DNA from: Candidatus Kerfeldbacteria bacterium
GTDB taxonomy: Bacteria > Patescibacteriota > Patescibacteriia > UBA10025 > JAHIVO01
DNA length: 64,000 bases
Direction: 5' to 3'
NCBI GenBank assembly: GCA_016214565.1
Contig: JACROE010000002.1
Span: 212,584-276,583 of the forward strand
Position numbers and translations under genes: made by a program. Below the pieces are notes generated by a model, which was given only the letters and a program-made list of their open reading frames with translations, was not told where the DNA came from and made no database searches. Every line of letters begins with the position of its first letter. Positions within the stretch are counted from its first letter, which is position 1. Positions 10,825-62,108 of the stretch are shown here, piece after piece.

Positions 10825-11030
10825 AGTTTTGCCTCCTTTTGTTTTTTGTTTTGTGGGGTACGTGCTTTGGCGAGATGCACGGATACAACCAAGACCCTCA
10901 TATCAGGGTGCTCGGCTTTTTTATTCAGGCAAATAATAGTTTTTCCCTATATTTACCTTAATATACATATATTTTAGCACATTTAAAAACTAAAGTCAAG
11001 CACCTCTGACCTTAAAATGCATAATTCAAA

Positions 11031-12206
11031 TTATTGCAACTCTCGCATGGCCAAACCGATAGCAACGGACATGCGCGGACCCAATTCACGTAATAATGAA
11101 TCAATTTCAACCGGATGCACCACGCGCGCCCAAGGATCGCCCACAAACGACCGAATGTTGAAGCTTTCTTGAATATACTGGGTTATGTTACCGAGAAAAG
11201 CCGAACCGCCAGTTAACACAACTTTTGAAATCGGCTGTTTATTCTGATTTCGGTAAATATTAGTAATATATCGAATTTCATTCATGATAGCGTTGATCAC
11301 GTATTTCACTTGCTTTGGCAATTGGTCAAGCGGCTGATTAGCCATTGAAATAGTGAGATCACGCTTCATTTGCTCAGCCTGTTCATACGAAACCTGCATC
11401 GAATCCACAATCGCCTGGGTGATACTTTTCCCTCCGAGGTCAATACTCCGATTCAAGATAGGCACGCCGTCAGCATAAATGATAATACTCGTCGCTCCGC
11501 CGCCGATATCAATGACCATGATGGGATTGTGATCATTCCCTACCAGCGAGCGCTCGATAGCGAATGATTCTGTTTCCAAACCAACTAATCGGAGGCCAAC
11601 GTCTTTAAAAAGGGCAACGTAATTATTTACTAAATTTTTGGGAGCGGCGGTTAAGAGAACCTTCAGATTTGGTTTTGAGTCTCCTCCAATAATACTCCGC
11701 TTATCAACGGTATCTTTCGCTGAAGCCCCTTTATCCGTTGGATTTGTGTTCGGGACATTCAATCCTGCAGTATTTATCTCTTTCTCTTTCTTCCTCTTTT
11801 TGTCCTCTTGCTTACCATCGTCGCCAGGCATGCCGCCTAATACCTCCCAATCCAAAATCATTTCCTCTAAGGGAATAGGTACAAATTTCTTCGCTTCCCA
11901 TCGCACCGCTGAAATCAAATCCTTCTTATTCATGGCGGGTAGACTGATGATCGAACTGAATACGCTAAAGCTTGGCAGTGCCGCTACCGCATTTTCTGTG
12001 GATACCTTGGCGCGCTTCAGCAACTCACGCAAATGCTCAGCGATTGCCGCCCGCGCTTCTTTCGTATCATCCTTCACGATATTGTATGTCTCATCAATAA
12101 AACCATACGTCACCAGCTGAGGGCGATTCTGCTCTAACTGCAATTCAACAATCTTAATACTGGATCCTCCTAAATCGATTCCGACGTAACTTTGTTTTTT
12201 TGCCAT
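11031..12206 (-). CDS. pilM: PilM (actin-like ATPase of the type IV pilus inner membrane complex)
   Basis: SYVGIDLGGSSIKIVEL...MVIDIGGGATSIIIY...LTGGSA are actin/FtsA-fold phosphate motifs. 391 aa with a Lys/Glu-rich insert. Confidence 0.85.
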   Translation of the reverse strand: MAKKQSYVGIDLGGSSIKIVELQLEQNRPQLVTYGFIDETYNIVKDDTKEARAAIAEHLRELLKRAKVSTENAVAALPSFSVFSSIISLPAMNKKDLISAVRWEAKKFVPIPLEEMILDWEVLGGMPGDDGKQEDKKRKKEKEINTAGLNVPNTNPTDKGASAKDTVDKRSIIGGDSKPNLKVLLTAAPKNLVNNYVALFKDVGLRLVGLETESFAIERSLVGNDHNPIMVIDIGGGATSIIIYADGVPILNRSIDLGGKSITQAIVDSMQVSYEQAEQMKRDLTISMANQPLDQLPKQVKYVINAIMNEIRYITNIYRNQNKQPISKVVLTGGSAFLGNITQYIQESFNIRSFVGDPWARVVHPVEIDSLLRELGPRMSVAIGLAMRELQ

Positions 12207-46637: not shown

Positions 46638-48050
46638 TCAAAAAGTCATAGTACGCAGCACGGCGCAGGTTGGCGTAGTCGCATCTTGCCAGACATAATC
46701 AGGAAATTGGCCAGGATTATTCTTTGACTGAATAATCTTTTCGTAGGCAGCCTGGACTTTGCCCACGTAATTCCTGGTTTCCGCGTAGCCAGGATTCTCC
46801 ACGCACTCCCACCAGGTTTGACCCGGACACGTCACACTCGAACAATTTGCGCCAACTCCGCCATTATAGGCCGCGTTCGCGTATTTATGATCACCATTTT
46901 TACACTGTGTTTGCTCTGGAAAGCACGAAGCTTTTTTCCCACTTTTATAGGTGGCTGACTTGGGGCACGTGCCATTCAACAAATCCCGATACAACTGTGC
47001 GGCAATGTTTATATTAGTCGCTGGATTGAGTAGCTGCTCACAGGTTATCCCGCCTGAATATTTCGCTGCGGTAGATGGCATCAATTGAATGAGTCCACAG
47101 GCGCCAACGGACGATTTTGCCTTTGGGTTACCCGATGACTCGACCAGCATCAGCGCCTTGAGCCAATCACGATCAATGCCGATATTTGCCGCTTCGGCAG
47201 TCAAACAATTATCAAAGGTACTGGTATTTGCGGTTACGGCAAACCCACTTGAAGTTTTTTCCGGCGTTTCTTTGATTTCAAATTCTCGAATCGGAAATTG
47301 TCGTTCAATTTTAATCCCATCAAACTTGACTAAATTTGGATTGATCGTCAAAAGTATGGTATACGAGGCAACCGCAATCAGCAGCCCAATCAGCGCACTG
47401 GAAATAGTCTCTTTGGCGCTCTGAATCTGCGATTGATTGCCAAAAGAGATAATATAGCGGAACCCGCCGTACATCACAAAAACGGTGGAAAGAATACCAG
47501 CCACGCTCACCAGAAATACATAGAGTGCAATAATATATTCCCCGAGTGTCGCACCCGTGATAACGACAGTCCTCCCCTCGTTAAAAATGCTGGAAAATGG
47601 AATAGAGACTTGCGGAATAAACGAAACGAGTCGACGAGGATTATCCTCAGGTGTCGTTTGAGTTTCGCCTCTCCACTGAATACATTGGTCAATTTCAGTG
47701 CAGACCTCTCCGCTTGCGTTGCACACCGTGGCAGCGCAACCCTGCGGCTCATCTGGTTTGACGACAAAACATTGCCCTTCGATTCCCTCATGCGGTGGAC
47801 AGACACAGCAGCGCACGGTCGCGGTCGGCCTTTGCCGACAAGTACTAATCTGATCACAGGGCTGAGATTGCATGACATAACCAAATGCCTCACATTGAGC
47901 AGTCTCTGGATTGGTATGTGAATAGCATTCACCTGGACCTTTGACACAGCATCGTTCAGTTTCAGGCAACCCTTGAGCGCTGACTACACTCGGAGCCACA
48001 ACAAATAACCCCGCTCCGATGATTATCAGCGTGAAAAGATATCGTCGCAT
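46638..48050 (-). CDS. Secreted Cys-rich protein with VirB2/TrbC-pilin-like hydrophobic hairpin module and C-terminal lytic transglycosylase (SLT) domain
   Basis: Signal peptide. Cys-rich 130 aa. Hydrophobic hairpin AGILSTVFVMYGGFRYIISFGNQSQIQSAKETISSALIGLL. SLT motif LMLVESSGNPKAKSSVGACGLIQLMPSTA. Confidence 0.65.
   Translation of the reverse strand: MRRYLFTLIIIGAGLFVVAPSVVSAQGLPETERCCVKGPGECYSHTNPETAQCEAFGYVMQSQPCDQISTCRQRPTATVRCCVCPPHEGIEGQCFVVKPDEPQGCAATVCNASGEVCTEIDQCIQWRGETQTTPEDNPRRLVSFIPQVSIPFSSIFNEGRTVVITGATLGEYIIALYVFLVSVAGILSTVFVMYGGFRYIISFGNQSQIQSAKETISSALIGLLIAVASYTILLTINPNLVKFDGIKIERQFPIREFEIKETPEKTSSGFAVTANTSTFDNCLTAEAANIGIDRDWLKALMLVESSGNPKAKSSVGACGLIQLMPSTAAKYSGGITCEQLLNPATNINIAAQLYRDLLNGTCPKSATYKSGKKASCFPEQTQCKNGDHKYANAAYNGGVGANCSSVTCPGQTWWECVENPGYAETRNYVGKVQAAYEKIIQSKNNPGQFPDYVWQDATTPTCAVLRTMTF
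47316..47558 (-). repeat. Paralogous module copy 1 (approx. 240 bp, approx. 80% nt identity to 49970-50212)
   Basis: Encodes the shared FVMYGGFRY(I/V)ISFGNQSQIQSAKETISSALIGLL segment. DNA similarity is visible directly (ggaaatagtctctttggcgctctgaatctgcgattgattgccaaa vs ggaaatcgtttctttggcactctgaatctgtgactgattgccaaa). Confidence 0.75.
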
Positions 48051-48052
48051 AA

Positions 48053-49318
48053 CTATGGCAATTGGATAGTGTACACGTTTCCGGTATTGGCGTCGGTAAA
48101 GTATAACCGATTGTCATCATTGGAAACCACTAAATTCACAACGGTATACTCCTTGTTGCCAGTCGAGAGCGTGGGCAAAGCAACCAGGGTGCGCAAGCCT
48201 GAGTTAGTATCTATTTTATAAATTAAGTCATTGGTATTAGTAGCAGCTGATGGGACTATCCCAGTACCTTCAGGCAAAAATTTTGGTACCGCACAATAAA
48301 CAAATGACTCGCTATGCGTGAATGAACATTTTGACGACCATGTTTGTAATCCTAATTCAATGGTATTGCCTCCCGTAGTATCCCCACTCGCATCAACCAG
48401 AAATAACTCAGGGTTATAGCGAGAGCTGGCATTATAGGTACTGTACAGTAATTGTTTGCCGTCGGGTGACCAAGTGCCTTCGAAGCCACGCCCGGTGGTG
48501 GTGATTGATTTGAAATTTTCTCCCTGGGTGCCAATCAAAAATATTTCCTGACTAGTTCCATTTTGCGCCTCACGGAAAGTAGCTACCACTTGGCTCGAGG
48601 GAGACCAATTAATATCAACGTTTTGGCTCTGGTCGCCGAGCGGTTCAATCGCCTCGACCTGAGAACCGTCGGAATTGGAAATCGCTAGCCAGCGCTCATC
48701 CTCGATGTCTGACTCATTTTTAAAGCCTAATTTCTGGCCATTGGGAGAAAATTCAACGTCATTCCAGGTGCGCGGAATCGTCAGCTGATTATGCAAATCA
48801 AAATCGTAGATGATTTTCGTGTCATCGGGAAACGTAATCAACGCTTTATTTTCAACTGGTGACCACTCAATCGTATCGGCCTGGGGGAATATTTGATCGG
48901 AGAGTGCAACTTGCTTACCTAGTGCATCAAGCATAAAAAACTGCCCGGTATCTTTATCGTAAAAACGAATCCCGTTGCCGTCCGGGGTCGTATTCACGCC
49001 AAGGGCATTGGCTCGCGCCACAATATCAGCAATAGTTTCACCTCCCTGAGCTACCGGGCTTGGCCCGGTATTCGTATTGGCCGCTGGTGCGGTATTCGTG
49101 AAGCGATTTGTATTTGTGACGTTGGTAGGAGGAATATTTACTGCGCCATTAGAGTTTGGCAATACGCCACCATTCGTTACTTGATTCGTATTCTGGTTTG
49201 CATTATCATTTCCATTTCCCGAGGTAAAAATGTCGCGCAAAAAAACAAAATATATCAGCGCGCCAAACACGATGACAATCAAGATAAAGAGCGTAATGAA
49301 TAATAGTCGTCGATTCAT
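48053..49318 (-). CDS. TolB-like beta-propeller protein (PD40/WD40-like repeats), membrane-anchored
   Basis: N-terminal TM. PD40-type blades (WSPDGKQLLYST, FSPNGQKLGF, INWSPSSQVVATF). 421 aa. Confidence 0.6.
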   Translation of the reverse strand: MNRRLLFITLFILIVIVFGALIYFVFLRDIFTSGNGNDNANQNTNQVTNGGVLPNSNGAVNIPPTNVTNTNRFTNTAPAANTNTGPSPVAQGGETIADIVARANALGVNTTPDGNGIRFYDKDTGQFFMLDALGKQVALSDQIFPQADTIEWSPVENKALITFPDDTKIIYDFDLHNQLTIPRTWNDVEFSPNGQKLGFKNESDIEDERWLAISNSDGSQVEAIEPLGDQSQNVDINWSPSSQVVATFREAQNGTSQEIFLIGTQGENFKSITTTGRGFEGTWSPDGKQLLYSTYNASSRYNPELFLVDASGDTTGGNTIELGLQTWSSKCSFTHSESFVYCAVPKFLPEGTGIVPSAATNTNDLIYKIDTNSGLRTLVALPTLSTGNKEYTVVNLVVSNDDNRLYFTDANTGNVYTIQLP

Positions 49319-49324
49319 AGTTTC

Positions 49325-50404
49325 TTATTGACAAAAATACTGCACGAATCCGCCCACGATACTCTGGTCAGGCGGACGAATATCACCGGGGCCAAAAAAA
49401 TTAAACCTGGCTTGGGGCATAATGACACATGATTTCCCCTCTTCACATACTTTGCCAATCAGCAAATTATGAGGAACTGTTTTTTCCTTAATCATCCCAC
49501 AGTCAAGATCGTTTAAAATATGCGCATTATAAATAAGATTATCAGTAGGATTTAATATCGGCCATTGATCAATGCATTCAAATGTAGACTTGCCATCTTC
49601 CTCCACGGCAGCACACACCTTATTTTCCCCACACGTAATACCAATACACTCATCCGTTTGTCCTTCATGCCAAATGAACCCGCAGGTTTGAAACAATTTC
49701 TCCTTGCAAACTTTACGATCCCCATAACTCAAAACGCAACCATATGTTTTTTCTCGGCCGTCATCAGCAATGACCTGACAGGTTTCCCCGTCAGTGCAAT
49801 TTGAGCCCTTATACACACACTGTTTACTGTCTGCGCTCTCAATCACCCCCGTACGTTCGACGGTTCCGACGTCACCACAGTTCACCGAGCCCTCAACTTT
49901 CGGCGTTGCGGTTCCCTCTCGATCCTCGCACCAACCCGCTCCAAATTCTGCGATCGGAGTAAAATCAATCACATCAAAACGAGTCAAATTCGGATTGATA
50001 AAATACAGTATGGTGTATGAACTGACCACCAATAATAACCCAATCAATGCGCTGGAAATCGTTTCTTTGGCACTCTGAATCTGTGACTGATTGCCAAATG
50101 ATATGACATACCGAAATCCTCCATACATAACGAAAACCGTGGTCAAGATACCAGCCACCCCCGCAAAATACCGATAAATGCCGACAATGTAGCAGCCAAG
50201 ATTTTTTATGTAGTGCCCACCGTCATGATTAACGGTCACTCCGGGTATTTCAATACTGAGCTTAATTGCCTTGGTAAAATCAGTTATGGCGCATGGATCA
50301 GTCTGATTGGCTCCTTGGGCAAATGTAGTCAATGGCACAATGACCATCGCGGTTACGATAGCTATCCTGAAAACAATGCGATGTGATTTGAGCCAACGAA
50401 CCAT
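49325..50404 (-). CDS. Secreted Cys-rich protein carrying the same VirB2/TrbC-pilin-like hydrophobic hairpin module (paralog of the 46638-48050 N-region)
   Basis: Signal peptide (TTFA/QGA). AGVAGILTTVFVMYGGFRYVISFGNQSQIQSAKETISSALIGLL. Cys-rich C-terminal domain. 359 aa. Confidence 0.65.
   Translation of the reverse strand: MVRWLKSHRIVFRIAIVTAMVIVPLTTFAQGANQTDPCAITDFTKAIKLSIEIPGVTVNHDGGHYIKNLGCYIVGIYRYFAGVAGILTTVFVMYGGFRYVISFGNQSQIQSAKETISSALIGLLLVVSSYTILYFINPNLTRFDVIDFTPIAEFGAGWCEDREGTATPKVEGSVNCGDVGTVERTGVIESADSKQCVYKGSNCTDGETCQVIADDGREKTYGCVLSYGDRKVCKEKLFQTCGFIWHEGQTDECIGITCGENKVCAAVEEDGKSTFECIDQWPILNPTDNLIYNAHILNDLDCGMIKEKTVPHNLLIGKVCEEGKSCVIMPQARFNFFGPGDIRPPDQSIVGGFVQYFCQ
49970..50212 (-). 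repeat. Paralogous module copy 2 (see 47316-47558)
   Basis: Near-identical 45-aa core and approx. 80% nucleotide identity to copy 1. Confidence 0.75.
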
Positions 50405-51104: not shown

Positions 51105-53003
51105 TTAGGCCGATGCCTCGGCTCCTTCGCGCTGCGAAGCGACAAACTCGCGTTTGGCCTGCTCTATTTCCAGCAACTGGCGCGGATCAGAGGTAATGAT
51201 CTGATCCTCCGTGTATGAAGCAACCACTTTTATAGCGGCGTGCTTCGAGCCGGCAAAGAAAATGCCTTCACCCACCCCGCACTCAAGCAGGAGATATTTC
51301 TCTCCTTCGGTCAGCAGGAATGTCTTGGCAATCAGATCAATCGCCGCTGGTGACTGTTTCATCAGCAACTGAATCGCGGAGTTATTCACGATTGCCTGTC
51401 CATACGGCGATCGCAAAAAGTCATTCACGTCCTGGGTAATAGTCGTGACACCCAGGTAATATTTACGACATCGCTTCACCAGAGCAAAAATAAATTTCGC
51501 GGAATCTTCCTGCTGCATCAACCACCACGCTTCATCAATGACCATCAGGCGTTTCTTCAATTGGGAACGTACCGTATTCCAGATATAGGAAACGATCAAC
51601 TGGATACCGACGGGCTTCAATTCATCCTCAAGATCACGCACTGAGAACACCACTAACTGGTTATTCATTTCCACGTTGGTCGGGTTATTGAGTAAACCAG
51701 CAAACGTTCCTTCCGTATATTTCTTGAGGCGGGTCACCAATTGGTCAGCACCGACCATGCCCTCGAGCACTTCTTGGAAATCCTGGAAGAGCGGCGGTTC
51801 GACGCGAGTCAAATCTGTTTCTGCCGTAATATCTTTCTTGGCATAGGTCTCAATCAAAGCTCGATCAATGATGGAGTCTTCCTCGTGGGAAAATTGACCC
51901 AGCATCAGCCGAAGCAGACCCTTCAGAGTGATGACCGCCGACCGAATAATATCCGACGTTTTTTCATCCTTGCGCGTCGGCCGCGGCAAATCAAACGGAT
52001 TAATCTTACTCTCTGAACTCAATGAAATGTTAATATAGGTACCGCCCACGGCATCGGATAAGTATTTGTACTCCATTTCTGGATCAATCACGATGACGTC
52101 AGTGCCCAGCATCATGCTGCGCAATATTTCCAGCTTAACGGCGTAGCTTTTACCAGCACCGGAGGTGGCGAAAACCACCGAGTTCGCATTTTGCAGAGAA
52201 AATCGGTCAAATAATATAAGGCTATTGTTATGACGATTAATTCCGTACAGGATACCGTTGTCGCTGGTCAACTCGGACGAAATAAAAGGGAACGATGAGG
52301 CAACCGGCGAACTGGCCATATTGAAGGTGATATTCAATTCATCGGTCGCAAGCGGCAAGGTGGACATGAAGCCCTGCTCCGCTTGATAGAGCACCCGCTT
52401 GGTATACACCAGTCGCGAGCCAAACAGCGATTCAACTTTTTCCGTTATCTTATCCAGCTCATCTTTTTGTTGTGCGTACATGGTAATATACAGCGCGTAC
52501 TGGAAAAACCGTTCAATGCCCTGCGTCAGGTCATCGCGTAGCTTTTCAATATCACGAAGCGCCGTTTCACGGATCGGATCGCGGGGGGCACCTTTTTCCG
52601 CATCGGCTAATATTTGAGCTTCCAGGGCGCCCACTTTATTGCGCAATTGCTTCAAAATAATTTCCGAATTAACCGGATAGAAAAACATGGCAATGTCCAG
52701 TGGAACGTTCAGATTGATCACCGGCGCAAACCATCCGACACGGATATAGCGTGGATATGCCACAACAAATATGGTCCGGACAAACTGGGAGCCCAATTCC
52801 AGATAACGCGATTCAATCCTCATTGATGCCGGCGCAATCAAATCGCGCACCGTCACCACGCCGCGCCGATACGCTTTTTCTGATTCGAGGAGTGTCTTTT
52901 TTTCCTCAAGTTGTTCGCGCGCCAGCTGCTCCTTTTCCTGAGGAGTTAATTCGGGTGGTCGTTCAGTTGGGATGGATTGCGTAGCACGATAGAGTTCAAC
53001 CAT
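51105..53003 (-). CDS. virB4: VirB4/TrbE/CagE-family type IV secretion ATPase (C-terminal ATPase portion, 632 aa)
   Basis: Walker A VVFATSGAGKSYAVK. Walker B RLMVIDEAWWLM. DUF87/VirB4-type arrangement with conserved Arg/Gln residues in the C-terminal region. Confidence 0.8.
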   Translation of the reverse strand: MVELYRATQSIPTERPPELTPQEKEQLAREQLEEKKTLLESEKAYRRGVVTVRDLIAPASMRIESRYLELGSQFVRTIFVVAYPRYIRVGWFAPVINLNVPLDIAMFFYPVNSEIILKQLRNKVGALEAQILADAEKGAPRDPIRETALRDIEKLRDDLTQGIERFFQYALYITMYAQQKDELDKITEKVESLFGSRLVYTKRVLYQAEQGFMSTLPLATDELNITFNMASSPVASSFPFISSELTSDNGILYGINRHNNSLILFDRFSLQNANSVVFATSGAGKSYAVKLEILRSMMLGTDVIVIDPEMEYKYLSDAVGGTYINISLSSESKINPFDLPRPTRKDEKTSDIIRSAVITLKGLLRLMLGQFSHEEDSIIDRALIETYAKKDITAETDLTRVEPPLFQDFQEVLEGMVGADQLVTRLKKYTEGTFAGLLNNPTNVEMNNQLVVFSVRDLEDELKPVGIQLIVSYIWNTVRSQLKKRLMVIDEAWWLMQQEDSAKFIFALVKRCRKYYLGVTTITQDVNDFLRSPYGQAIVNNSAIQLLMKQSPAAIDLIAKTFLLTEGEKYLLLECGVGEGIFFAGSKHAAIKVVASYTEDQIITSDPRQLLEIEQAKREFVASQREGAEASA

Positions 53004-53004: not shown

Positions 53005-53682
53005 CTATTCGATATTGAGTTTGCTCACGTCGACTAATTGTTGCTGGTCGTATGTGTCAGGGTTGTACGTATTATAATACAATTCGATCAAGCTCTGCGT
53101 GTCTAGCTGGACCGCTTTCAAACCAATCGAACTTAAACCGTCAATAATGTACTCAATGCGCTTCTGCATCTCAATCCGATTTTTCTCGAATTTCTTTTGT
53201 TTAATGGTGATAACGTTTGTTGGCGACAGCACCTCTTTCACTCGGCTAAAAAACCCCTTGGCTTTTATATTGCCGGCGGCGTACGGCACAACGATATAAA
53301 ATCGCTTGCTCATGATGTCTGCCAGTGAAACCAATTCCTGAATATACTGGCGATACTCCCGGGTTTGCACTTTGAGCAGCTCATTGGTCTGCTCTTTCTC
53401 AACCGTTTTCAGCCGCTCCAGGTAATCGTCAATATTTAGTTTCCGAGATTGAATCAATATTTGAAGGGGAAATTCTATCGTATTCAAAAATTGAACATAC
53501 CCTTGAATAACCGCATTTTGTTCGTCTTCAGATTTCAAAGCAAAATTGATCGACGAAACGAGTACAACTGCACGCAGCGTCCCATCTTTCAGGATAACCG
53601 TGTTATCCTTGATTTCAAGAATGCTCATGTATTGCTGAGTAGCGGCCGCGAGATTATTTTTACTGATTTTTTCTTCAGCCAT
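53005..53682 (-). CDS. Soluble 225-aa protein translationally coupled to virB4; candidate split-off VirB4 N-terminal domain
   Basis: 1-nt gap to the virB4 start. 225 + 632 = 857 aa, matching full-length Gram-positive VirB4 (e.g. approx. 800 aa). No TM. Confidence 0.35.
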   Translation of the reverse strand: MAEEKISKNNLAAATQQYMSILEIKDNTVILKDGTLRAVVLVSSINFALKSEDEQNAVIQGYVQFLNTIEFPLQILIQSRKLNIDDYLERLKTVEKEQTNELLKVQTREYRQYIQELVSLADIMSKRFYIVVPYAAGNIKAKGFFSRVKEVLSPTNVITIKQKKFEKNRIEMQKRIEYIIDGLSSIGLKAVQLDTQSLIELYYNTYNPDTYDQQQLVDVSKLNIE

Positions 53683-53687: not shown

Positions 53688-54119
53688 TTAATTATTTGGC
53701 TCAAGTCCTTCCTGATACGCCCCGCCTGTATCGACCACGAGCGATAACTCGGTCAATCGCGATTCAGTTAAGCGTTGCTTCTTGGAGGGAGGGGGCGGTG
53801 CGGGCTTTTCCTTCTCCTCTTTAACACTGCTATTATCATACTGCTTATGCCAGATGGTCAGGGTCGGCCGACGCAATGTTTGCATCATGTTTAATAAAAA
53901 ATGGTGAAACGGTCGCCCATTAATTTTCGCAAAAGCAAATACACCAGTCAGAGCAAAAATGAGTACGCCTTCAATGGCGGCCGCCCAAAAGTTGGCGAGT
54001 TTAAAAACAATAAAAATCATGCCGGCACCGATTAAAAAAGTGATGAACTGGCGCACCGTTAAGGGGCCAATAATTTTATTCTCAACATCGAGGAATTGAG
54101 GAACAATAAATTGCTGCAT
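53688..54119 (-). CDS. PrgI/VirB3-like small two-TM protein
   Basis: IIGPLTVRQFITFLIGAGMIFIVF, then a second TM (VLIFALTGVFAFA), as in PrgI-family proteins preceding VirB4. 143 aa. Confidence 0.55.
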   Translation of the reverse strand: MQQFIVPQFLDVENKIIGPLTVRQFITFLIGAGMIFIVFKLANFWAAAIEGVLIFALTGVFAFAKINGRPFHHFLLNMMQTLRRPTLTIWHKQYDNSSVKEEKEKPAPPPPSKKQRLTESRLTELSLVVDTGGAYQEGLEPNN

Positions 54120-54121: not shown

Positions 54122-55453
54122 CTAAGTGACGAGTCGCGCATTGAGCGCATTAATGGCAAAAAATTCTTCCGTCAAGAGAAATGGCTGCTGACTTTCGCGA
54201 CGTTTTCTCACAATCTCACCAATAGGCACATTCTGCTCCATGCTTTCTCGGCCAATCGCCAAGTACAGTGCAAAAAGAGGCGAAGTACGCCAGGCCTGAA
54301 CTGCTTGCATCCGCATTTCCCACGACTCCTCCTCCAGTAATTCAATTTTTTCATACACTTTATCCGCTGATTCTGAGGGATTGGTACCCAAGCGGCGGAA
54401 TTCCTGCAAATCAACTTGATGAATTTCTTCAACAGGTCCAACCACGCCCGCAGGCTGGCGGATGTCAATCATTTGTGGTTTGTCCGGACGCATCGTCTGA
54501 CGAATGCGCGGCATCGCCTGATCAGACTGACCATACAATTCATGAGCAGGCGCAACCGGCCGTGGTGTCTCGGAAATAGGTACAGCCGGACGAACTGGTG
54601 GTCGAGGAACTGGCGATACGATTGGCGCGGGCGGTATCGCCGCGGCGGGTGGCTTCATAGCTGCCAATGCAGCCGCCATATCAGCTGGCATGGTGGGTGT
54701 AACCGGCGAGACAGGTGCGGCACCGCCTGGGCGGGGTACAAAAGCAGGTGGAGCAGCCGCATACATACCCCGCTCTGGAGCAGGCTGCGACGCTGGTTTT
54801 TTAATCACTGGAGTTTGAGCGGCAGGCTTACCGTGGCGCATTGTGTCTGACTCAACCATGACCGATTCAATAACCGCAGTAGCCACTGGAGCAGCGAAAC
54901 CCAGCCCACCAATCTTCGTCTGCCGTTGCAGCACGTCTTCTACTTCGATGGCGCTGCGCAAACCACGGATGAAAGACTCAAGCACCTTCGCAAATCGTTT
55001 TTGCATCAGATCGCTATCAAATGTCAGATTGTGCTTGCGAATGACTCGTTCAACGACTGCGTCAACGGTTTGCGCAGGATCTGAGGCGGGCTGCGTCACC
55101 ATTTTCTGCAATTCAGCGGCATGCCGTTTAATCTCCTCTTCATCACTTTTATCAATAAATGCCGCGGGTGCCGGGCCTAAATCTTTAAGCGGCGGACTCG
55201 GGCGAAATGGCGTGGGTGAGGGAGTCGGCACTACCGACTTTGCTGCTGGCTGGGCAGCAACCGGTGTAGCAACGATTTTTGGCGTTGGCGAAACTGACGC
55301 GGGCTTTGGAGCTACTGCCGGAGGCGGTGGGGTGGGCAGCGAACCTGAATCTACATCAATTGATTCATTATGATGCACACGAGAAAAGGTGCCTCCTGGG
55401 TCTTTAACCAGGAAGCCGTCTTGCCACTCATTCATTAATTGATCATCAGCCAT
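54122..55453 (-). CDS. Pro/Ala-rich hypothetical protein (443 aa), no TM
   Basis: Long PxP tracts (PTPPPPAVAPKPASVSPTPK...; PPAAAIPPAPIVSPVPRPPVRPAVP) with a conserved-looking approx. 90-aa C-terminal domain. Confidence 0.6.
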   Translation of the reverse strand: MADDQLMNEWQDGFLVKDPGGTFSRVHHNESIDVDSGSLPTPPPPAVAPKPASVSPTPKIVATPVAAQPAAKSVVPTPSPTPFRPSPPLKDLGPAPAAFIDKSDEEEIKRHAAELQKMVTQPASDPAQTVDAVVERVIRKHNLTFDSDLMQKRFAKVLESFIRGLRSAIEVEDVLQRQTKIGGLGFAAPVATAVIESVMVESDTMRHGKPAAQTPVIKKPASQPAPERGMYAAAPPAFVPRPGGAAPVSPVTPTMPADMAAALAAMKPPAAAIPPAPIVSPVPRPPVRPAVPISETPRPVAPAHELYGQSDQAMPRIRQTMRPDKPQMIDIRQPAGVVGPVEEIHQVDLQEFRRLGTNPSESADKVYEKIELLEEESWEMRMQAVQAWRTSPLFALYLAIGRESMEQNVPIGEIVRKRRESQQPFLLTEEFFAINALNARLVT

Positions 55454-55464: not shown

Positions 55465-56418
55465 TTATAACGTCGTGATTGGACGAGTTTGCGTAATATA
55501 GAATTTATTGTGTGACCACGCCCATTCGATATCCTGTGGCGTACCATAGTGCTTCTCGATTGTTGCACACAATCGTGCTATTTTCATAATCTGAGCACTC
55601 TTCAATTTCTGTTTCTCGCGTTTTGCTAGCGGAACCATTACTTCACGGGTTCCCTGCGTTCCCTTGCGCTGTATCATCCGTTCTTGCCGTGAGACAGCAA
55701 TATCGAGAATAGCATCCGATTTCCGATCGACGACGTAGGTATCGGGCGTAATGCGTCCGGAAACAACCGCCTCTCCCTGCCCCCAGCCAGCCTCGATAAC
55801 CATATGCTGGCGATTCTTTGTCACGGGATGCGCCGTAAAGGTTATACCCGCCACTTCAGAATCAATCATTTCCTGCACCACCACGGCGACTGATACGGGA
55901 ATGGTATGTAATTTCTTCTCAAAACGATAAAAAATTGCTCGTGGCGTAAAAAGAGAGGACCAGCAGGTTTGTATCGTTTTCAGTAATTGTGGTTTTCGTA
56001 TGAATAAATACGACTCTAATTCCCCTGCCCATGATGCCGTCGAAGAATCCTCGGCTGTCGCAGATGAGCGGACGGCGACCGTAGTATTATGTAATTTTGT
56101 AAATGCGGCGAACACCTCTCGCGCTAACTCAGGGGGGAATGATGCGTTTTGAATTTTCCTTCGTAGTTCACGGGAGGCTCGGTTGATACTGGCTAAAACT
56201 TTCGGATCGACCGTGCGTAACATGCGGCTGGCGAGACTATCAATCCCCGTATCACGCATAAATTGATCAAATGCGGTACGCAATACCACAAAACCCTGAG
56301 GTACCGGGATGTGATGTGCGGTCATCTCGCCAAGATTTGCCCCTTTGCCGCCCGCGAGATTGACGCTCTTCTTATCGAGCTTGCTGAAGGGGGATACAAA
56401 GGCTTTCGATGACTTCAT
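55465..56418 (-). CDS. Stand-alone PPDK_N domain protein (ATP-grasp nucleotide-binding domain of PEP synthase / pyruvate phosphate dikinase / rifampin phosphotransferase)
   Basis: LAGGKGANLGEM...VAVRSSATAEDSSTASWAGELESY...DIEWAWSHNKFYITQTRPIT covers the complete PPDK_N signature. 317 aa. No His-swivel or PEP-binding domain attached. Confidence 0.8.
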   Translation of the reverse strand: MKSSKAFVSPFSKLDKKSVNLAGGKGANLGEMTAHHIPVPQGFVVLRTAFDQFMRDTGIDSLASRMLRTVDPKVLASINRASRELRRKIQNASFPPELAREVFAAFTKLHNTTVAVRSSATAEDSSTASWAGELESYLFIRKPQLLKTIQTCWSSLFTPRAIFYRFEKKLHTIPVSVAVVVQEMIDSEVAGITFTAHPVTKNRQHMVIEAGWGQGEAVVSGRITPDTYVVDRKSDAILDIAVSRQERMIQRKGTQGTREVMVPLAKREKQKLKSAQIMKIARLCATIEKHYGTPQDIEWAWSHNKFYITQTRPITTL

Positions 56419-56575
56419 GATGATCGATTATGCTTAAAAAAATCATATAATGAGCATTCAAAATCATGGCTACATTATAGCATAATTTGCCGATAAAATC
56501 AAACCACGAAAATCATCGGCAAATATCTAAGTGATTGTTGAAGAAAACGCAAAAAAATGGTAAAATAACGTTACT

Positions 56576-57403
56576 ATGGCTGATATGGAGGTCAAGAAAA
56601 TCAAAGTAGCCCAGCAAAGAGAAACCGTGGCCTCACCTTTTAGTTCAACAATATCTCCTGCCACAACGGAGCCCCCCAAGCCCATGGGGAGTCCATTGCG
56701 CATGCCCAGCAATAATATCTCAATACCGGTAGCAATGCCTTCGGGACAAACCGAAAGAGAAAGCCAGTGGAGTCAAACGTTATCACAGGAACGGGTTAAC
56801 CAATTCAAACAGTCAAAAAAAATGACTGGCACTATCGGTCGCATGCTGGGTAATTTAGAAAACCCTGACTTAGATATGGAAGATAATCAAAATCTCCAAT
56901 ATCTAAAAAAAATGCAGCATTCTCTGACCAAGGGATCAAAAGTAAATGCCATTAAAACTGGTGCACAAATCGGTATAGACCTCCGCCACCGCATCGCCGC
57001 CGGAGGAATGCAAGGATTTTTATTTGCTTTGTCATTGGCGATCATTAAAGACTTCTGGGACTTCGGCACTATTTGGTTTACGATCGGGTTCGCTGGCACA
57101 CTCTTCAATATCATGATTACTACCGCACTTCTATTTGTGGTCATGTTTCAAGGAATCTGGTTTCGTCGCTGGTTACTAAAAAAAATGTGGAGTAGGTTTC
57201 TAGGCGCTATCATCCTGGAATTTATTCCTATACTTAATTTTTTTCCCTGGTGGATTATCAGCGTACTCTTAGTTAAACAAGCAGCTGATAAACGACTCAA
57301 GAAAATGGAAGCGGCTGGAGATCAGCATGACCAAAATATGGAGGAACTCAAAGCGGCTGAAGAGGATTCAGGGGAACAGGCCCAATACAATCAAGCCGCC
57401 TAA
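56576..57403 (+). CDS. Hypothetical membrane protein (3-4 TM helices in C-terminal half); the only plus-strand gene in this block
   Basis: GMQGFLFALSLAIIKDFWDFGTIWFTIGFAGTLFNIMITTALLFVVMF...FLGAIILEFIPILNFFPWWIISVLLV. Start uncertain. Confidence 0.5.
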   Translation: MADMEVKKIKVAQQRETVASPFSSTISPATTEPPKPMGSPLRMPSNNISIPVAMPSGQTERESQWSQTLSQERVNQFKQSKKMTGTIGRMLGNLENPDLDMEDNQNLQYLKKMQHSLTKGSKVNAIKTGAQIGIDLRHRIAAGGMQGFLFALSLAIIKDFWDFGTIWFTIGFAGTLFNIMITTALLFVVMFQGIWFRRWLLKKMWSRFLGAIILEFIPILNFFPWWIISVLLVKQAADKRLKKMEAAGDQHDQNMEELKAAEEDSGEQAQYNQAA

Positions 57404-57443
57404 TATTTTAGGTGACCCATATCCGTATAGCACATTATGAGTG

Positions 57444-58970
57444 CTATATTTTTTTTACAATTCCTTTAGTTGCATCCACTTCGACCCGGTCGCCGGTCTT
57501 CAGTACACGAGTGGCAATCATGGTACCGATCACGCAGGGAATTCCTAATTCACGTGAGACAATAGCGGCATGGGTCGTAATCCCACCCTGGTCGGTAATA
57601 ATCGCCGCCGCCTTTTTCATCAGTGGGACAAACTCAGGTGTGGTATTATTAGTTACCAAAATATCTCCCTTATTAAAGGGGCCAGGCTGATGAGCATTCC
57701 GTACGAGCCGAACGACCCCTCGCGCTATTCCTGGGCTGGCAGCAACGCCGGCAATTAAGTCCGCAGCACTGTTTCGTGGTTCGAAATCTTTCTCGTGTAC
57801 AAACCGCGACACAGTTCGACCATGATATAATACATACCCACGTCGAGTACCGTAAACAAACGTTCGGAGGCGGCGGCTCCGCAATTCCTGAGGATCAAAA
57901 TTACGATCTAAAAAAACCTTCGCTACTTCTGGCTCCACAACGCTATACATCTCATTCAAATCCAAGCCAACCCGCTTGCCCATCTCAGAAAAAATTAATC
58001 GGAGAAAGTGACTGAAGCGAATGAGGCACATCTTGCGATAATCTTGCATGTGCGTCATTTGTTCGGAAAAATACACCACATGTGACAGCCAAGGATTATG
58101 GAGTCTGTGTAATAATTTGTTTTTCTCTATTCGATTTTTTTTCAACACCGTAGCCAGATCCCCCATGAATGGCTGCCGAACGAGTCGAAAAAGTTTCGAT
58201 GCAAAATAGCGTTCAGTGAGCACCTTAGCGTAATAATTATTCTCAACCCAATAATACAGTCGGGCATGTCGCTTAAGTGCCTTCCAAAACCTTGGAGTAC
58301 GCTGAAGAAATCTAAAAAAATCAGGAAACGTTCGCCACTGTCCCCGAATTTTGCGAGCGAGGCGTTGTAATGCGATCTCCTCCTCATTGGTATATGAAGG
58401 GATAGTGGGCGCTGTCAGAATTGTAATAGCCTTTTGGCGCCTGGCCGCATCAGCAATATGGCGACTAATAAATTGGCTCAACCAATCTTCAGTTCCTGCA
58501 GTCAAACAGCAATCAGCCATATATCCTTCAGCGGCCTGGTCCATATTTGCCCAATATAGCTTATGATACAATGCATAAAGCTGCTGATCAGTAAGTATAC
58601 GCACGTCAATTGCTTCTGCCGCAGCATAGGCAGCGAGATTTGCGTCAGCATGCCGCTCCCACCGTCGATAAAATTTACGGAAAATCGCTAAGCTCCGTTT
58701 GCAACCACGCACGAAATAATCCCGCACCAAAGCTAAATCTCGCAAATCCCAATAGTGAAATAATTCCGTTTGCTCAGATGGCATAGTGCGGATAAATAAA
58801 TAGCTTTGTCGAATTGCAGGTGAATACCGCTGATTTTGCAACCATACCCCGGCATGGGTACCTTGCATAAAAATGGTATGTAAGAATCCTGGGTAATTTT
58901 TTTCCAGCCATAAATGACGAGGATTTCTCGTTCGAATAGTATATGGAGATAACCGCCTGTACTGTTTCAT
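57444..58970 (-). CDS. Paralog 1 (508 aa): helical N-terminal domain plus C-terminal PEP-utilizing enzyme mobile (phosphohistidine swivel) domain
   Basis: C-terminus GDILVTNNTTPEFVPLMKKAAAIITDQGGITTHAAIVSRELGIPCVIGT...GDRVEVDATKGIVKKI. Confidence 0.8.
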   Translation of the reverse strand: MKQYRRLSPYTIRTRNPRHLWLEKNYPGFLHTIFMQGTHAGVWLQNQRYSPAIRQSYLFIRTMPSEQTELFHYWDLRDLALVRDYFVRGCKRSLAIFRKFYRRWERHADANLAAYAAAEAIDVRILTDQQLYALYHKLYWANMDQAAEGYMADCCLTAGTEDWLSQFISRHIADAARRQKAITILTAPTIPSYTNEEEIALQRLARKIRGQWRTFPDFFRFLQRTPRFWKALKRHARLYYWVENNYYAKVLTERYFASKLFRLVRQPFMGDLATVLKKNRIEKNKLLHRLHNPWLSHVVYFSEQMTHMQDYRKMCLIRFSHFLRLIFSEMGKRVGLDLNEMYSVVEPEVAKVFLDRNFDPQELRSRRLRTFVYGTRRGYVLYHGRTVSRFVHEKDFEPRNSAADLIAGVAASPGIARGVVRLVRNAHQPGPFNKGDILVTNNTTPEFVPLMKKAAAIITDQGGITTHAAIVSRELGIPCVIGTMIATRVLKTGDRVEVDATKGIVKKI

Positions 58971-60052
58971 ATTTTTCTAACAACTCCGCTTGTTGCGTCC
59001 ACTTCCACCCGGTCGCCGTCTTTGAAAACTTTGGTGGCAATTCTTGTACCGGCAATACTGGGGATTCTTAACTCACGACTGACAATCGCCGCATGGCTCA
59101 GAACGCCGCCACCCTCATCAACCACAATGGCCGAAACTTCTTTCAGTAAAGGCACATCATTAGGATGAGTATTAACACTAACGTAAATAGGATGTCTCGG
59201 CCACCGCACGGGACGTAACGTACGGATAACGGTGCCATTACGTTTGCCCCGAAATACTGACGTTCCTCGAACTACCCTCGCACTATCTATTACCCTAGGC
59301 CATACGCAACTTTTCTTCACTCGGCTAACTTCTTGGGTACGACCGTCTACTGTTTCCCTTCGCACGCCATAAAAATACACATACCCCTTGCGACGAGACT
59401 CAAGCGTGCGAGGTGAGACAACTAACCGCCGCTTCCTCAGAGTAGCAGATAATTCTGGCCGAGTCATCATAAGTAATAATCGCGGTGTAGTTCCTAATGC
59501 CCGAGCTACTAATCGAGCTATCTGCTGAAGCAGCACTTCAATGCGCGGATATACCGCGGCGATACGGTTGCGCTCCCGGGCAAGGCGCCGAAGTTCGCTG
59601 TGTGGCATAGACGGCATCAATCGATCTGCAAACTCTAAATACCGCCAAAAATAATTATACACACCAATAGCAGCAAAATAATCGGGGTAGCGACGAATCA
59701 AAAATTGTAAAAAATGAAACGGATTATCTGTGGCGAATGGTGCCTGGTGATCATACGCACGTACAAAGTCCTCATACCGAGCATATGCTTTCCTCCGACT
59801 TTGATTGAGCCAAGCAGGATGGCGCCGTAACTGCTGCGCTATCCGTCGTATGACAGATTGGATATTGAGTAGTGACGTCCACCGATTACCCGTGCCAATA
59901 CCACCCAACGAGCCATACGTCATACCCGCTAAACGACTAATCCGCCGGCCATACCCATTACTGACGCAACTCAAAGTAAACAAAGATAATTTCCTCTGCA
60001 CCCCGCCCTCGGCAGAAAGGTGATAATGAATAATTGACTGAGCAGGGTTCAT
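58967..60052 (-). CDS. Paralog 2 (361 aa): shorter N-terminal domain plus C-terminal phosphohistidine swivel domain
   Basis: VVDEGGGVLSHAAIVSRELRIPSIAGTRIATKVFKDGDRVEVDATSGVVRKI. ATGA overlap with paralog 1. Confidence 0.75.
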   Translation of the reverse strand: MNPAQSIIHYHLSAEGGVQRKLSLFTLSCVSNGYGRRISRLAGMTYGSLGGIGTGNRWTSLLNIQSVIRRIAQQLRRHPAWLNQSRRKAYARYEDFVRAYDHQAPFATDNPFHFLQFLIRRYPDYFAAIGVYNYFWRYLEFADRLMPSMPHSELRRLARERNRIAAVYPRIEVLLQQIARLVARALGTTPRLLLMMTRPELSATLRKRRLVVSPRTLESRRKGYVYFYGVRRETVDGRTQEVSRVKKSCVWPRVIDSARVVRGTSVFRGKRNGTVIRTLRPVRWPRHPIYVSVNTHPNDVPLLKEVSAIVVDEGGGVLSHAAIVSRELRIPSIAGTRIATKVFKDGDRVEVDATSGVVRKI

Positions 60053-60054
60053 AA

Positions 60055-61479
60055 TTATATTTTCCTCACAATCCCATGATTTGCCCGTACCTCAATCATA
60101 TCACCATCCTTGAATACTTTTGTCGCATACTGCGTTCCGACAATACACGGAATCCCCAACTCGCGGGAAACAATAGCGGCATGGCAGGTAATACCGCCCT
60201 CATCGGTAACGATACCAACCGCCTTTCGCAAGGCTGGCATATATTCAGGTCGCGTCATTGAAGCAATAATAATATCACCCCGACGGACGTTCTTTAATGA
60301 GGCGAGATTACGACAAATGACTGCCCGCCCAATTGCAGTGCCCATTGTCGCTGATGAACCATGAAGGTCATTGCTCGTTGTGGTAGTTGCCGCATGTTGA
60401 TAGCGCTGATTTAATTGACGGTACTGCGGACCGCTCGCAATATACTCCTGTAAACCCTCAGTAACGACAAAACATCCAGACCGATATCGCTCAATGAGTA
60501 CCCCGCGAATTCGCTTCAATTCACGGATAGCGCGTAGCTCTAAAACCTCTCTGACACCTAACTGATACAAGTAACGCTCATCAATAGATACCCGACGGTG
60601 TATCTCATGAATCACCAGACCCACATATCCAATCGTTCTTAAAATATGCTGTTTTCGGTTATCCTGCCAGATGGCGGCCTGATCAATCACGCTGACCATT
60701 GTTTGAATCTCAGGTCCGAGATAATACCGCCGCATAAGCTGATTTTTTGTATGCCTAATCTCTGCTAATGATCGATATCTTTCCGGCGCTATTCGCCACC
60801 GCTTCATAAACCACTGAACAGCAGGGAGGACTGGCCCCGAATAGCTGTTTTGTATCCATGAATAACGCTTCGCATGGCGGGCAATTGCCTGACGCCAACC
60901 GCTATCTTTTTTAATTCTAAAAAGCGCTCGCTCCTCCTGGGTAACGAAAGAAAGTTGAGTGGGCGTAGCGAGCTCCATAAAAACTTTATTTACGTCATTC
61001 GGTGGTACCACCCGCGTAATCGCCTGTTTAAACTCTCGCTCAATTCCGATCGAAATTGATTCAAGAATGTGAGCAATGCCCACGGCATCCGTGAGGCTGC
61101 CAGCCACACGCTTTAGCTGTGCCAATAATTGAGTATCAGTAATTGTACGGAGATATTTCAGTGATATACGCCGATTAAAAATCTCGTGCTTTTGCATGAT
61201 ACGGTTTGATCGGCGTTCTAATTGTTTTAAATATAACGGATTCTTTTTGAGTCGCTTCTTAGTCTCACGCCAAATACGCTCCAGGTCCGTCTGTAAATAA
61301 TGCATCTCCCCATATCCATCGTGATATCGATATAAGAATGAAGAATATCCAAATCCAATGTGTCCCTTCATTTTCATGCCGCTGTAACCGGCCATGCCGA
61401 GAAAAATCGGGACGCCAGTAAACCCCTGCGTGTACCAGCGCTTTTTAAAAGCTATTTGAAATCGTTGGGTGATAGTCAT
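60055..61479 (-). CDS. Paralog 3 (474 aa): N-terminal domain plus C-terminal phosphohistidine swivel domain
   Basis: GDIIIASMTRPEYMPALRKAVGIVTDEGGITCHAAIVSRELGIPCIVGT...GDMIEVRANHGIVRKI. N-domain motif SFVTQEERALFRI is shared with paralog 4 (SFVNETEVALFRI). Confidence 0.8.
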   Translation of the reverse strand: MTITQRFQIAFKKRWYTQGFTGVPIFLGMAGYSGMKMKGHIGFGYSSFLYRYHDGYGEMHYLQTDLERIWRETKKRLKKNPLYLKQLERRSNRIMQKHEIFNRRISLKYLRTITDTQLLAQLKRVAGSLTDAVGIAHILESISIGIEREFKQAITRVVPPNDVNKVFMELATPTQLSFVTQEERALFRIKKDSGWRQAIARHAKRYSWIQNSYSGPVLPAVQWFMKRWRIAPERYRSLAEIRHTKNQLMRRYYLGPEIQTMVSVIDQAAIWQDNRKQHILRTIGYVGLVIHEIHRRVSIDERYLYQLGVREVLELRAIRELKRIRGVLIERYRSGCFVVTEGLQEYIASGPQYRQLNQRYQHAATTTTSNDLHGSSATMGTAIGRAVICRNLASLKNVRRGDIIIASMTRPEYMPALRKAVGIVTDEGGITCHAAIVSRELGIPCIVGTQYATKVFKDGDMIEVRANHGIVRKI

Positions 61480-61484
61480 GCGAG

Positions 61485-62108
61485 CTACTTTCTTAGGTGT
61501 TTTTCAGCTTCCTTAACGCCATATAGATCACGCACTGGCGTAATAGCATGCGGCGTCGACGCAGCGGCTGTAGTTAAGTGGTATGCCCGACCGGGGACCG
61601 CTACTCCCTGCTGGCGCGCTTGTTGAACCGCTTTCAAAAAAAACTGGCAATTTTGCTTTCTATCATCAGTATACACCACTTCAGAAAATTTTTTTGCTAC
61701 GATCCGCCGCAATACATCTACCAGCATGGTGCTGGTCTTAACGTTTGTATTTCCGTAATCAAAAGTGCTAAATCGATAAGTAAAATAGTCGCGTATATCC
61801 AAATGATAGTGCTTTTGAATGTATTCTGCCCGCCAATCCAACTGCTCATGATTCCCTGTAGTGAAGTAGCCATTGTGCCGTGTCCAGCGAAGCACCTCGA
61901 CAAATCCAGGTGCTAATGAAAGTCGAAAGAGGCCTTCTCGATATGGCCGCTCATACGCATGTTCATAATCAAACGCTGAAATAGTCCGTAGATCATAGCC
62001 CAATGACTCTAGGTACGCATCATAATCCGGGAAGCCGCTGCTACGAGTATCCCACTCTTCAGGAAACAAAGTGTTGGCAAGATCCCATAAATAAAATACG
62101 CTGCCCAT
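61485..62108 (-). CDS. HAD-superfamily-like protein with degenerate motif I (D-L-A instead of D-x-D)
   Basis: VFYLWDLANTLF (motif I-like). APGFVEVLRWTRHNGYFTTGNH (motif II-like). K...EVVYTDDRKQN (motifs III/IV-like). 207 aa. Embedded in the paralog array. Confidence 0.45.
   Translation of the reverse strand: MGSVFYLWDLANTLFPEEWDTRSSGFPDYDAYLESLGYDLRTISAFDYEHAYERPYREGLFRLSLAPGFVEVLRWTRHNGYFTTGNHEQLDWRAEYIQKHYHLDIRDYFTYRFSTFDYGNTNVKTSTMLVDVLRRIVAKKFSEVVYTDDRKQNCQFFLKAVQQARQQGVAVPGRAYHLTTAAASTPHAITPVRDLYGVKEAEKHLRK

Follow-up and report, generated by a model that had tools for sequence, protein, structure and literature searches.

Concerted evolution of a T4SS_pilin-type membrane hairpin in two adjacent proteins of a Candidatus Kerfeldbacteria type IV secretion operon, one of them carrying a lytic transglycosylase domain

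Analysis of a 64-kb stretch of DNA (the window) from a metagenome-assembled genome of an uncultivated, ultra-small bacterium of Candidatus Kerfeldbacteria, a lineage of the Patescibacteria (candidate phyla radiation [CPR]), revealed a chromosomal operon related to type IV secretion systems (T4SS). The operon genes are tightly packed and all lie on the minus strand. In the order of transcription, they encode a Pro/Ala-rich protein, a PrgI/VirB3-like protein, TrsD, VirB4, a bitopic protein, protein B, a beta-propeller protein, and protein A, after which radA follows; the identical order was found on contigs of relatives. Proteins A and B, which are the subject of this analysis, are identical to database entries on a 1.116-Mb contig (A corresponds to P0001). 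Each of them carries a two-helix membrane hairpin, and the inner part of this hairpin is nearly the same in both proteins. The positions of all features are given in Table 1.

Protein A consists of a signal peptide, a Cys-rich N-terminal ectodomain, a VirB2-like hairpin, and an SLT lytic transglycosylase domain, and it is named "lytic transglycosylase domain-containing protein" by NCBI. The signal peptides of A and B were judged by eye from sequence and hydropathy. The N-terminal segment of A contains 14 Cys residues between aa 34 and 123 and an IPxxSIP motif common to A and B. Together with 10 Cys residues in aa 282 to 462, this makes 24 in A, and the hairpin is free of Cys. The fusion of the hairpin to an SLT domain had been claimed in a preliminary description of this DNA made from the sequence alone, and the match of aa 284 to 401 to PF01464 (E = 3.7e-17) confirmed it. 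The SLT motifs, i.e., Glu-Ser (E304-S305), GLxQ (Q322), and AYNGG (Y395, N396, and G398), do not vary among 53 homologs, and the SLT profile matches the EmtA, MltC, and Slt70 structures with the ES motif aligned (E = 2e-17). Pfam and NCBIfam scans of A for a second hydrolase domain found SLT only. The hairpin-SLT architecture is widespread and occurs in over 50 clusters formed at 90% identity.

Protein B begins with a signal peptide and a short N-terminal ectodomain, which are followed by the VirB2-like hairpin and a variable Cys-rich C-terminal domain. NCBI names for its orthologs are "pilin" or "hypothetical." The C-terminal domain contains 16 Cys residues (aa 159 to 358), is predicted to be beta-rich, and is hypervariable among orthologs in both length and sequence. 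An AlphaFold2 (AF2) model of full-length B had a mean predicted local distance difference test score (pLDDT) of 63, with most of the C-terminal domain below 60. The remaining two of the 18 Cys residues of B are C38, in the short N-terminal ectodomain, and C71, in an LGCY motif at the outer end of helix 1; the hairpin core has none. Both C38 and C71 are invariant in 20 B-type orthologs, and A-type proteins have Glu at the position of C71 (LGEY). A disulfide between C38 and C71 may pin the N-terminal segment of B to the hairpin.

Sequence searches assigned the hairpin to the T4SS_pilin family (PF18895). With a gathering score of 26.6 bits, B was above the cutoff (29.7 bits; 34.8 bits for the isolated module), and A was marginally below it (25.8 bits). 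The precomputed Pfam annotation of the identical protein P0001 includes PF18895, and all 51 of 51 homologous modules matched this family (best E = 6e-15). The second most frequent family was TrbC/VirB2 (PF04956), with weak matches in 14 of the 51 modules (best E = 3.6e-4), and CagC was matched by 1 of 51. PF18895 pilins have been described as VirB2-like and as encoded near virB4 in Patescibacteria (PMC12102498). In the AF2 model of the module (pLDDT 82), helices comprise residues 7 to 39 and 44 to 74 and are joined by the four-residue turn SFGN; hydropathy agrees with this arrangement. The T4SS pilin-type hairpin proposed in the preliminary description is thus supported by PF18895, above the cutoff in B and just below it in A, and by an operon with VirB3, TrsD, and VirB4 functions. 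Its two helices were found as described, and most of the supposed short polar loop belongs to the start of helix 2.

When 1.84 billion representatives (clustering at 50% identity) were searched with the profile, 84,506 matched at an E value of 1e-3 or lower. Tandem hairpins within single polypeptides were also observed, with 17 hairpins in P0108 (1,775 aa), 11 in P0109 (1,147 aa), and 6 in P0094 (552 aa). Every one of these repeats shows the same G-G...S-x-G-(D/N)-P...A-K pattern. Such "poly-pilins" may represent precursors or oligomers joined by covalent linkage.

Comparison of A with B by BLASTP (E = 3e-36) aligned aa 127 to 257 of A with aa 30 to 154 of B, with 70 of 131 residues identical. 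The ungapped module (A aa 168 to 246, 47313-47549; B aa 68 to 146, 49967-50203) is identical at 59 of 79 residues, and its core (A aa 183 to 226; B aa 83 to 126) at 40 of 44. The central observation of the preliminary description, a near-identical hairpin common to two adjacent proteins, therefore holds for the protein core. The nucleotide identity of about 80% over about 240 bp given there was too high; the 132-nt core is 76.5% identical and the 237-nt module 68%. The statement that everything else in the two proteins differs was likewise slightly too strong. The homology reaches approximately 30 residues further toward the N terminus, up to a common IPG motif, and also runs on through a juxtamembrane INPNL motif, and Cys-rich ectodomain segments of the CxxGxxC type are present in both proteins. 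A tblastn search of the 64-kb window detected two copies only (E of about 1e-37), the next-best match having an E value of 0.3.

To compare the hairpins across genomes, GTDB species representatives were scanned, which yielded 61 loci. The arrangement of B, propeller gene, and A was present in 28 species including the window genome, and their 56 modules were aligned to one hidden Markov model (HMM). Core identity was calculated over HMM columns 21 to 63, in which the window pair is 93% identical. In these columns, A and B of the same genome were 75.6% identical, whereas A and B of different genomes were 50.8% identical, and the values for A against A and B against B were 50.8% and 52.7%, respectively. 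The same-genome excess was significant in a permutation test (p <= 1e-4), and in 20 of the 28 genomes the best match was the partner from the same genome. The flanks gave a different picture. In the N-flank (columns 2 to 20), the identity was 32% for A and B of the same genome, 30% for A and B of different genomes, 54% for A against A, and 48% for B against B; the corresponding values in the C-flank (columns 64 to 84) were 53%, 43%, 56%, and 53%.

A per-column test restricted the same-genome excess to columns 21 to 70. In A, this span takes in the SFGN turn and, on either side of it, the inner half of each helix; the span in B is a direct repeat of 47355-47504 on the same strand, 2,654 bp upstream. 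Within columns 21 to 70, the own-genome paralog was the nearest neighbor of 20 of the 56 modules. Identity there was 51% within and 50% between the two gene types, which indicates that the distinction between A and B has been erased in this region. In the flanks used for the nearest-neighbor test (columns 2 to 20 and 71 to 84), 54 of the 56 modules had a nearest neighbor of the same gene type, and for none of the 56 was it the own-genome paralog.

The same-genome signal was also visible in the choice of codons. Among 837 core sites with identical residues, 415 had the same codon in A and B, compared with 296 expected from the codon usage of each genome (p = 2e-17); at such sites in the flanks, the same codon was used in 196 of 461 cases, with 174 expected. 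The codon excess was significant after Benjamini-Hochberg correction in 7 of the 28 genomes. In L004, the closest relative of the window genome, 26 of 32 codons were identical, and a 63-nt tract had 2 mismatches. L007 had 22 of 30 identical codons and a stretch of 47 identical nt. No codon excess was found in the window (17 of 39, with 13.8 expected; p = 0.18) or in L047, L002, and L017. Such an uneven signal among genomes is what episodic conversion predicts. In the core of the window pair, 37 of 44 codons agree at position 1, 43 at position 2, and 21 at position 3; the nonsynonymous divergence (dN) is 0.05 to 0.06, and the synonymous divergence (dS) calculated by NG86 is saturated. Because NG86 dS values over 43 to 83 codons are noisy and skewed by codon bias in GC-rich genomes, they were used qualitatively. 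Close orthologs showed dN/dS ratios (omega) of about 0.07 to 0.1. The low dN and saturated dS of the window pair are therefore what would be expected if conversion took place long ago and normal purifying selection acted afterwards. The hairpin core of A and B thus undergoes concerted evolution by recurrent gene conversion in at least 28 species. The gene conversion suggested in the preliminary description is supported, in the form of recurrent events across the clade; a recent event in the window genome is not. Strict conservation through constraint, also offered there, does not suffice as the sole cause, as orthologous cores are just 51% identical.

Pairs of adjacent hairpin genes also occur in other clades, and some of their modules are 100% identical over the whole hairpin (L063:9791-12232 and L060:4092-6219). 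Very recent conversion, duplication, or an assembly effect could be responsible. The permutation test is not interpretable for these pairs, which mix independent duplications. A second hairpin protein, of approximately 300 aa, is encoded directly after the hairpin-SLT gene in several clades.

The similarity of the two cores might alternatively reflect a recent duplication, a recent conversion in the window genome, or an assembly artefact in the form of a collapsed repeat. The high amino acid identity of the core is the sole observation in favor of such an event, which we consider extremely improbable. A recent duplication or an artefact does not account for the pair because dS is saturated and just 21 of 44 third positions match. 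The pair is older than the divergence of at least 28 species, across which the flanks (approximately 26 to 67% identical) follow orthology, and the same pair is found in independent assemblies. The collapsed repeat, against which the preliminary description had warned, is excluded because 31 of the 132 core nucleotides are not shared by the copies, third positions accounting for most of them, and because the pair recurs in 27 independently assembled species. Protein-level co-evolution without any gene conversion, in which a substitution in one copy would be matched in the other by selection, has more in its favor: the synonymous sites of the window pair look randomised, yet 40 of 44 residues are identical, and several genomes, including L047, L002, and L017, lack a codon excess. 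It is nevertheless very unlikely in our view, given the identical or near-identical tracts of 47 to 63 nt in L007 and L004 and the pooled excess of identical codons (p = 2e-17). The low dN (about 0.06) and saturated dS of the window pair fit an old conversion with subsequent purifying selection.

Table 1. Features of the T4SS operon, of proteins A and B, and of a type IV pilus gene set in the 64-kb window
Feature	Position in window	Strand	Evidence
Gene A, 470 aa	46638..48050	-	Open reading frame (ORF); Pfam SLT E = 3.7e-17, T4SS_pilin 25.8 bits
A aa 1-25, predicted Sec-type signal peptide (MRRYLFTLIIIGAGLFVVAPSVVSA/QG, cleavage between)	47976..48050	-	By eye, from sequence and hydropathy
A aa 26-163, N-terminal extracytoplasmic segment	47562..47975	-	Cys map; alignment to B
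A aa 164-248, T4SS_pilin-type helix-turn-helix membrane hairpin	47307..47561	-	Module HMM columns 2-86, 126 bits; PF18895 at aa 168-232
A aa 183-232, concertedly evolving core (columns 21-70)	47355..47504	-	Per-column same-genome identity excess
A aa 284-401, family-1 lytic transglycosylase (SLT)	46848..47201	-	PF01464 62.4 bits (cutoff, 21.3 bits), E = 3.7e-17
Membrane-anchored TolB/PD40-like beta-propeller protein, 421 aa	48053..49318	-	Weak matches to Pfam PD40 and NCBIfam TolB propeller
Gene B, 359 aa	49325..50404	-	ORF; T4SS_pilin 29.7 bits, above gathering score
B aa 64-147, T4SS_pilin-type hairpin	49964..50215	-	Module HMM 124 bits; AF2
B aa 83-132, concertedly evolving core	50009..50158	-	Per-column same-genome identity excess
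B aa 148-359, C-terminal extracytoplasmic domain	49328..49963	-	Alignment; Cys map
Bitopic protein, 217 aa	50420..51073	-	One N-terminal transmembrane (TM) segment (hydropathy), domain of about 180 aa, no Cys; synteny
VirB4-like conjugal-transfer ATPase, monoderm CD1110/PrgJ type	51105..53003	-	NF045971 359 bits (cutoff, 325 bits); P-loop_TraG, AAA_10
TrsD/VirB4 N-terminal-domain-like protein	53005..53682	-	NCBIfam VirB4_plasma N-terminal E = 3e-12, TrsD E = 1e-4
PrgI/TcpE family protein (VirB3-like)	53688..54119	-	PF12666 35.8 bits (cutoff, 27 bits)
Pro/Ala-rich protein, 443 aa, first operon gene	54122..55453	-	Translation; no TM segment
Type IV pilus set: PilB-type ATPase	5802-7571		
Type IV pilus set: fn3 protein	7586-8503		
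Type IV pilus set: PilO-like protein	8510-9091		
Type IV pilus set: PilM	11031-12206		

The genes upstream of B encode recognisable T4SS functions. The orthologs of the TrsD-like protein carry the TraC-like domain PF26593. The bitopic protein is kept between VirB4 and B in every relative examined; neither Pfam nor PDB contains a sequence match to it, and it is, by its position only, a candidate for a VirB8-like component, which has been reported to be mostly undetectable in Patescibacteria. The beta-propeller gene lies between B and A in 28 of 28 species and does not, to our knowledge, encode a recognised T4SS component. The cytoplasmic and membrane partner proteins of the operon contain 0 to 2 Cys each. 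The Pro/Ala-rich protein had no Pfam or NCBIfam match, and its orthologs of 449 to 463 aa occupy the same position in relatives. It sits where a VirB6-like gene might be expected and is clearly not polytopic. The operon as a whole agrees with what has been published for Patescibacteria, in which the T4SS is encoded on the chromosome, derives from monoderms, lacks a relaxase, and has VirB2-like pilins (PMC12102498).

We consider it probable that A and B are the two VirB2-like components of this T4SS, with hairpin cores that are homogenised by gene conversion and hairpins that are equivalently placed in one assembly. The Sec signal peptide would export A and B, the hairpin would hold each protein in the cytoplasmic membrane, and the segments on both sides of the hairpin would lie outside the cell. 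We infer this N-out/C-out topology, with oxidised ectodomains; it fits because the Cys residues of A and B lie outside the hairpin on both sides and the partner proteins have 0 to 2. A would then display its Cys-rich N-terminal domain and the SLT domain, which would supply the VirB1 function, and B would display its hypervariable Cys-rich domain. Gene conversion with short tracts of about 150 bp has recurred between direct repeats 2.65 kb apart, with purifying selection acting thereafter. The inner hairpin has been homogenised in lineage after lineage, beginning before the divergence of at least 28 species, and the outer helix ends and the ectodomains have remained gene specific. In the window genome, the last conversion is old because the synonymous sites are randomised, and the 93% protein identity is what purifying selection has left since then.

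This homogenisation may be tolerated or favored because both hairpins would have to take equivalent positions in one assembly. Such an assembly could be one VirB2-type polymer or stalk, in which A and B would co-assemble, or a common docking platform of the T4SS. The core would be the counterpart of the lumen-lining, subunit-packing part of solved VirB2 pili, with termini and fused domains facing outward. PrgF of pCF10, a VirB2-like pilin of a monoderm T4SS, has been modeled with outward termini and a loop that lines the lumen (bioRxiv 10.64898/2025.12.18.695078). Since the termini point outward in VirB2 pili and in the PrgF model, terminal fusions are topologically compatible with incorporation. 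Whether the hairpins co-assemble or dock on a common platform, the SLT domain would be positioned where the machine passes through the wall. The targeting of the SLT domain to the secretion channel by the hairpin, as proposed in the preliminary description, is plausible and fits the synteny.

Several observations weigh against this interpretation. In hhalign comparisons, the module profile was in register with the hairpins of eight annotated alphaproteobacterial VirB2/TrbC proteins (E = 0.075; Prob 0.75%) and with helix 1 and the turn of PrgF from pCF10 (E = 0.004; Prob 8.5%), and neither match was significant. Searches of PDB sequences with B and with the module profile found no pilin. The operon and the 64-kb window contain no VirB6-like polytopic protein, no VirD4, and no relaxase. 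A and B, in which ectodomains of 130 to 230 residues flank the hairpin on one side or both, are not hairpin-only proteins and are far larger than any polymerising VirB2 known to us. Concerted evolution can also arise neutrally from conversion between nearby repeats and is no proof of a shared binding site. Finally, the same hairpin is fused to Peptidase_M23, Peptidase_C39_2, Amidase_2, and VanY (D-Ala-D-Ala carboxypeptidase), for example in P0086, P0087, P0090, P0062, and L063:11108-12232. Because it is joined to many unrelated cell wall enzymes, the hairpin could be a generic anchor. It would then serve the Patescibacteria as an anchoring or export module for wall enzymes and surface proteins, the conversion would be neutral, and "pilin" would be a misnomer. 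The fusions, now including SLT, the very large size of the family, the nonsignificant VirB2 profile match, the operon without VirB6, and fold searches with the module that were nondiagnostic because it is a helical hairpin all favor this explanation. We regard it as rather unlikely in view of the strict synteny of A and B with VirB4, TrsD, and PrgI in 28 species and of TrbC/VirB2 as the second most frequent Pfam match. Small PF18895 proteins, moreover, form an essential array in the T4SS locus of Southlakia epibionticum (PMC10633639). The conversion also ends sharply at type-specific flanks, which indicates selection on what may and what may not be homogenised.

A more specific form of the VirB2-like interpretation is that A and B co-polymerise via their cores into a VirB2-type conduit, with the SLT domain of A and the hypervariable Cys-rich, adhesin-like domain of B on its outer surface or at its tip. 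We consider this doubtful. If it were true, the structure would be a "self-drilling," host-specific T4SS pilus with which these episymbiotic bacteria would cross their own wall and perhaps that of the host. Conversion would then maintain uniformity in the part of the core that forms the lumen and packs the subunits, and the exposed domains would be free to diverge.

Canonical VirB2/TrbC pilins (VirB2 of Agrobacterium tumefaciens and TrwL of R388) and PrgF resemble A and B in that the signal peptide is cleavable and a short polar or charged turn connects two hydrophobic helices, and their genes adjoin virB1, virB3, and virB4 functions. Unlike A (470 aa) and B (359 aa), canonical VirB2/TrbC proteins comprise 70 to 120 aa without extra domains, and their sequence relationship to the hairpins described here is weak. 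Canonical VirB2 polymerises on a VirB6 pentamer, whereas the window has no VirB6. On seven alphaproteobacterial MPF_T plasmids (L065 to L071), the gene in the virB1 position, virB2, and virB3 follow each other as separate genes. The product of the gene in the virB1 position is annotated as lytic transglycosylase or VirB1 in six of the seven and as "type IV secretion protein" in L067. Protein A thus joins functions that are neighbors in classical MPF_T systems, with the domain order reversed (hairpin and then SLT). VirB1-type hydrolases, i.e., VirB1 itself, PrgK of pCF10, TraG of pIP501, and CwlT of ICEBs1, are likewise SLT-type enzymes encoded in T4SS operons, and the monoderm proteins PrgK, TraG, and CwlT share with A a membrane tether N-terminal to the catalytic domain. 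Their tether is one TM segment, and they have a second hydrolase domain (CHAP, NlpC/P60, or LytM). The tether of A, in contrast, is a VirB2-like two-helix hairpin, so that A is in effect a VirB2-VirB1 fusion. In Patescibacteria, VirB1 has been inferred to be dispensable, as most VirB2-bearing genomes lack it, and a fusion is not mentioned in that report (PMC12102498).

The closest described counterpart is the array SEML1_0014-0019 of S. epibionticum, the members of which belong to PF18895 and have the layout of signal peptide plus hairpin. As in the window, the T4SS of S. epibionticum is chromosomal, relaxase-less, and of the monoderm type, with PrgI, TrsD, VirB4, and several paralogs. The pilin array and the T4SS of this organism are essential for epibiotic growth (PMC10633639). 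Its locus encodes six small pilins of approximately 125 to 140 aa, whereas the locus studied here encodes two large hairpin proteins; its hydrolases are separate (SEML1_0006 and SEML1_0007), whereas here the SLT domain is fused to a hairpin protein. Published pilin arrays of Patescibacteria are divergent, with a mean identity of 25% and a maximum of 54% (PMC12102498). The hairpin cores are homogenised here and diversified there. Several virB2-like genes per T4SS locus in Bartonella and Anaplasma, as cited in PMC12102498, are read as diversifying (antigenic variation and host range). As far as these arrays are described there, they differ from the A/B pair, in which the hairpin is homogenised and the ectodomain of B varies.

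Long-lasting concerted evolution is known in prokaryotes and is rare, examples being the duplicated mtrA of methanogens (PMC4632066) and a set of 26 genes (PMC6053082). As described, these cases share with A and B paralogs that are closer to each other within a genome than to their orthologs, a deep persistence, and mosaic tracts. The A/B pair is distinguished by a homogenisation limited to about 50 codons in otherwise nonhomologous multidomain proteins and by its target, a secretion system membrane hairpin in CPR bacteria. A literature search, with incomplete coverage, found neither a published pilin-SLT (VirB2-VirB1) fusion nor concerted evolution of these pilins. The domain-restricted concerted evolution and the VirB2-VirB1 fusion appear to be new; the PF18895 family and the T4SS were already known, and the advance is therefore incremental rather than categorical. 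At this locus, the clade encodes a pair of large hairpin fusions in place of small plain pilins, and one of the two is the VirB1-type hydrolase. The approximately 50 residues that would have to stay interchangeable between the two subunits provide a testable map of an assembly interface, and the pair is a clean example of long-lasting subgenic gene conversion in reduced genomes. The systems concerned, the T4SSs of Patescibacteria, are without relaxases, and in the single lineage in which this has been tested, epibiotic growth depends on them.

Further genes of the window were noted. A stand-alone PPDK_N (ATP-grasp) gene (55465-56418) lies directly upstream of the T4SS operon and is also present there in L002 and L003. 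Between 57444 and 63680, four of five consecutive minus-strand genes (508, 361, 474, and 523 aa) end in a PEP-utilizers mobile domain, and a 207-aa gene without a Pfam match (61485-62108) is located between the third and the fourth of them. The region from 55465 to 63680 thus holds an unusual split and expanded PEP-synthase/PPDK-like set. Type IV pilus genes are found at 5802-12206, approximately 35 kb from the T4SS operon (Table 1). The segment from 12293 to 35587 contains very large minus-strand ORFs of 3,934 aa (12293-24097), 490 aa, 791 aa, 1,230 aa, and 1,318 aa. The ORFs of 490, 791, and 1,230 aa had no match in a Pfam scan, and the 1,318-aa ORF contains BNR/sortilin-type repeats. These large ORFs probably encode giant surface proteins.

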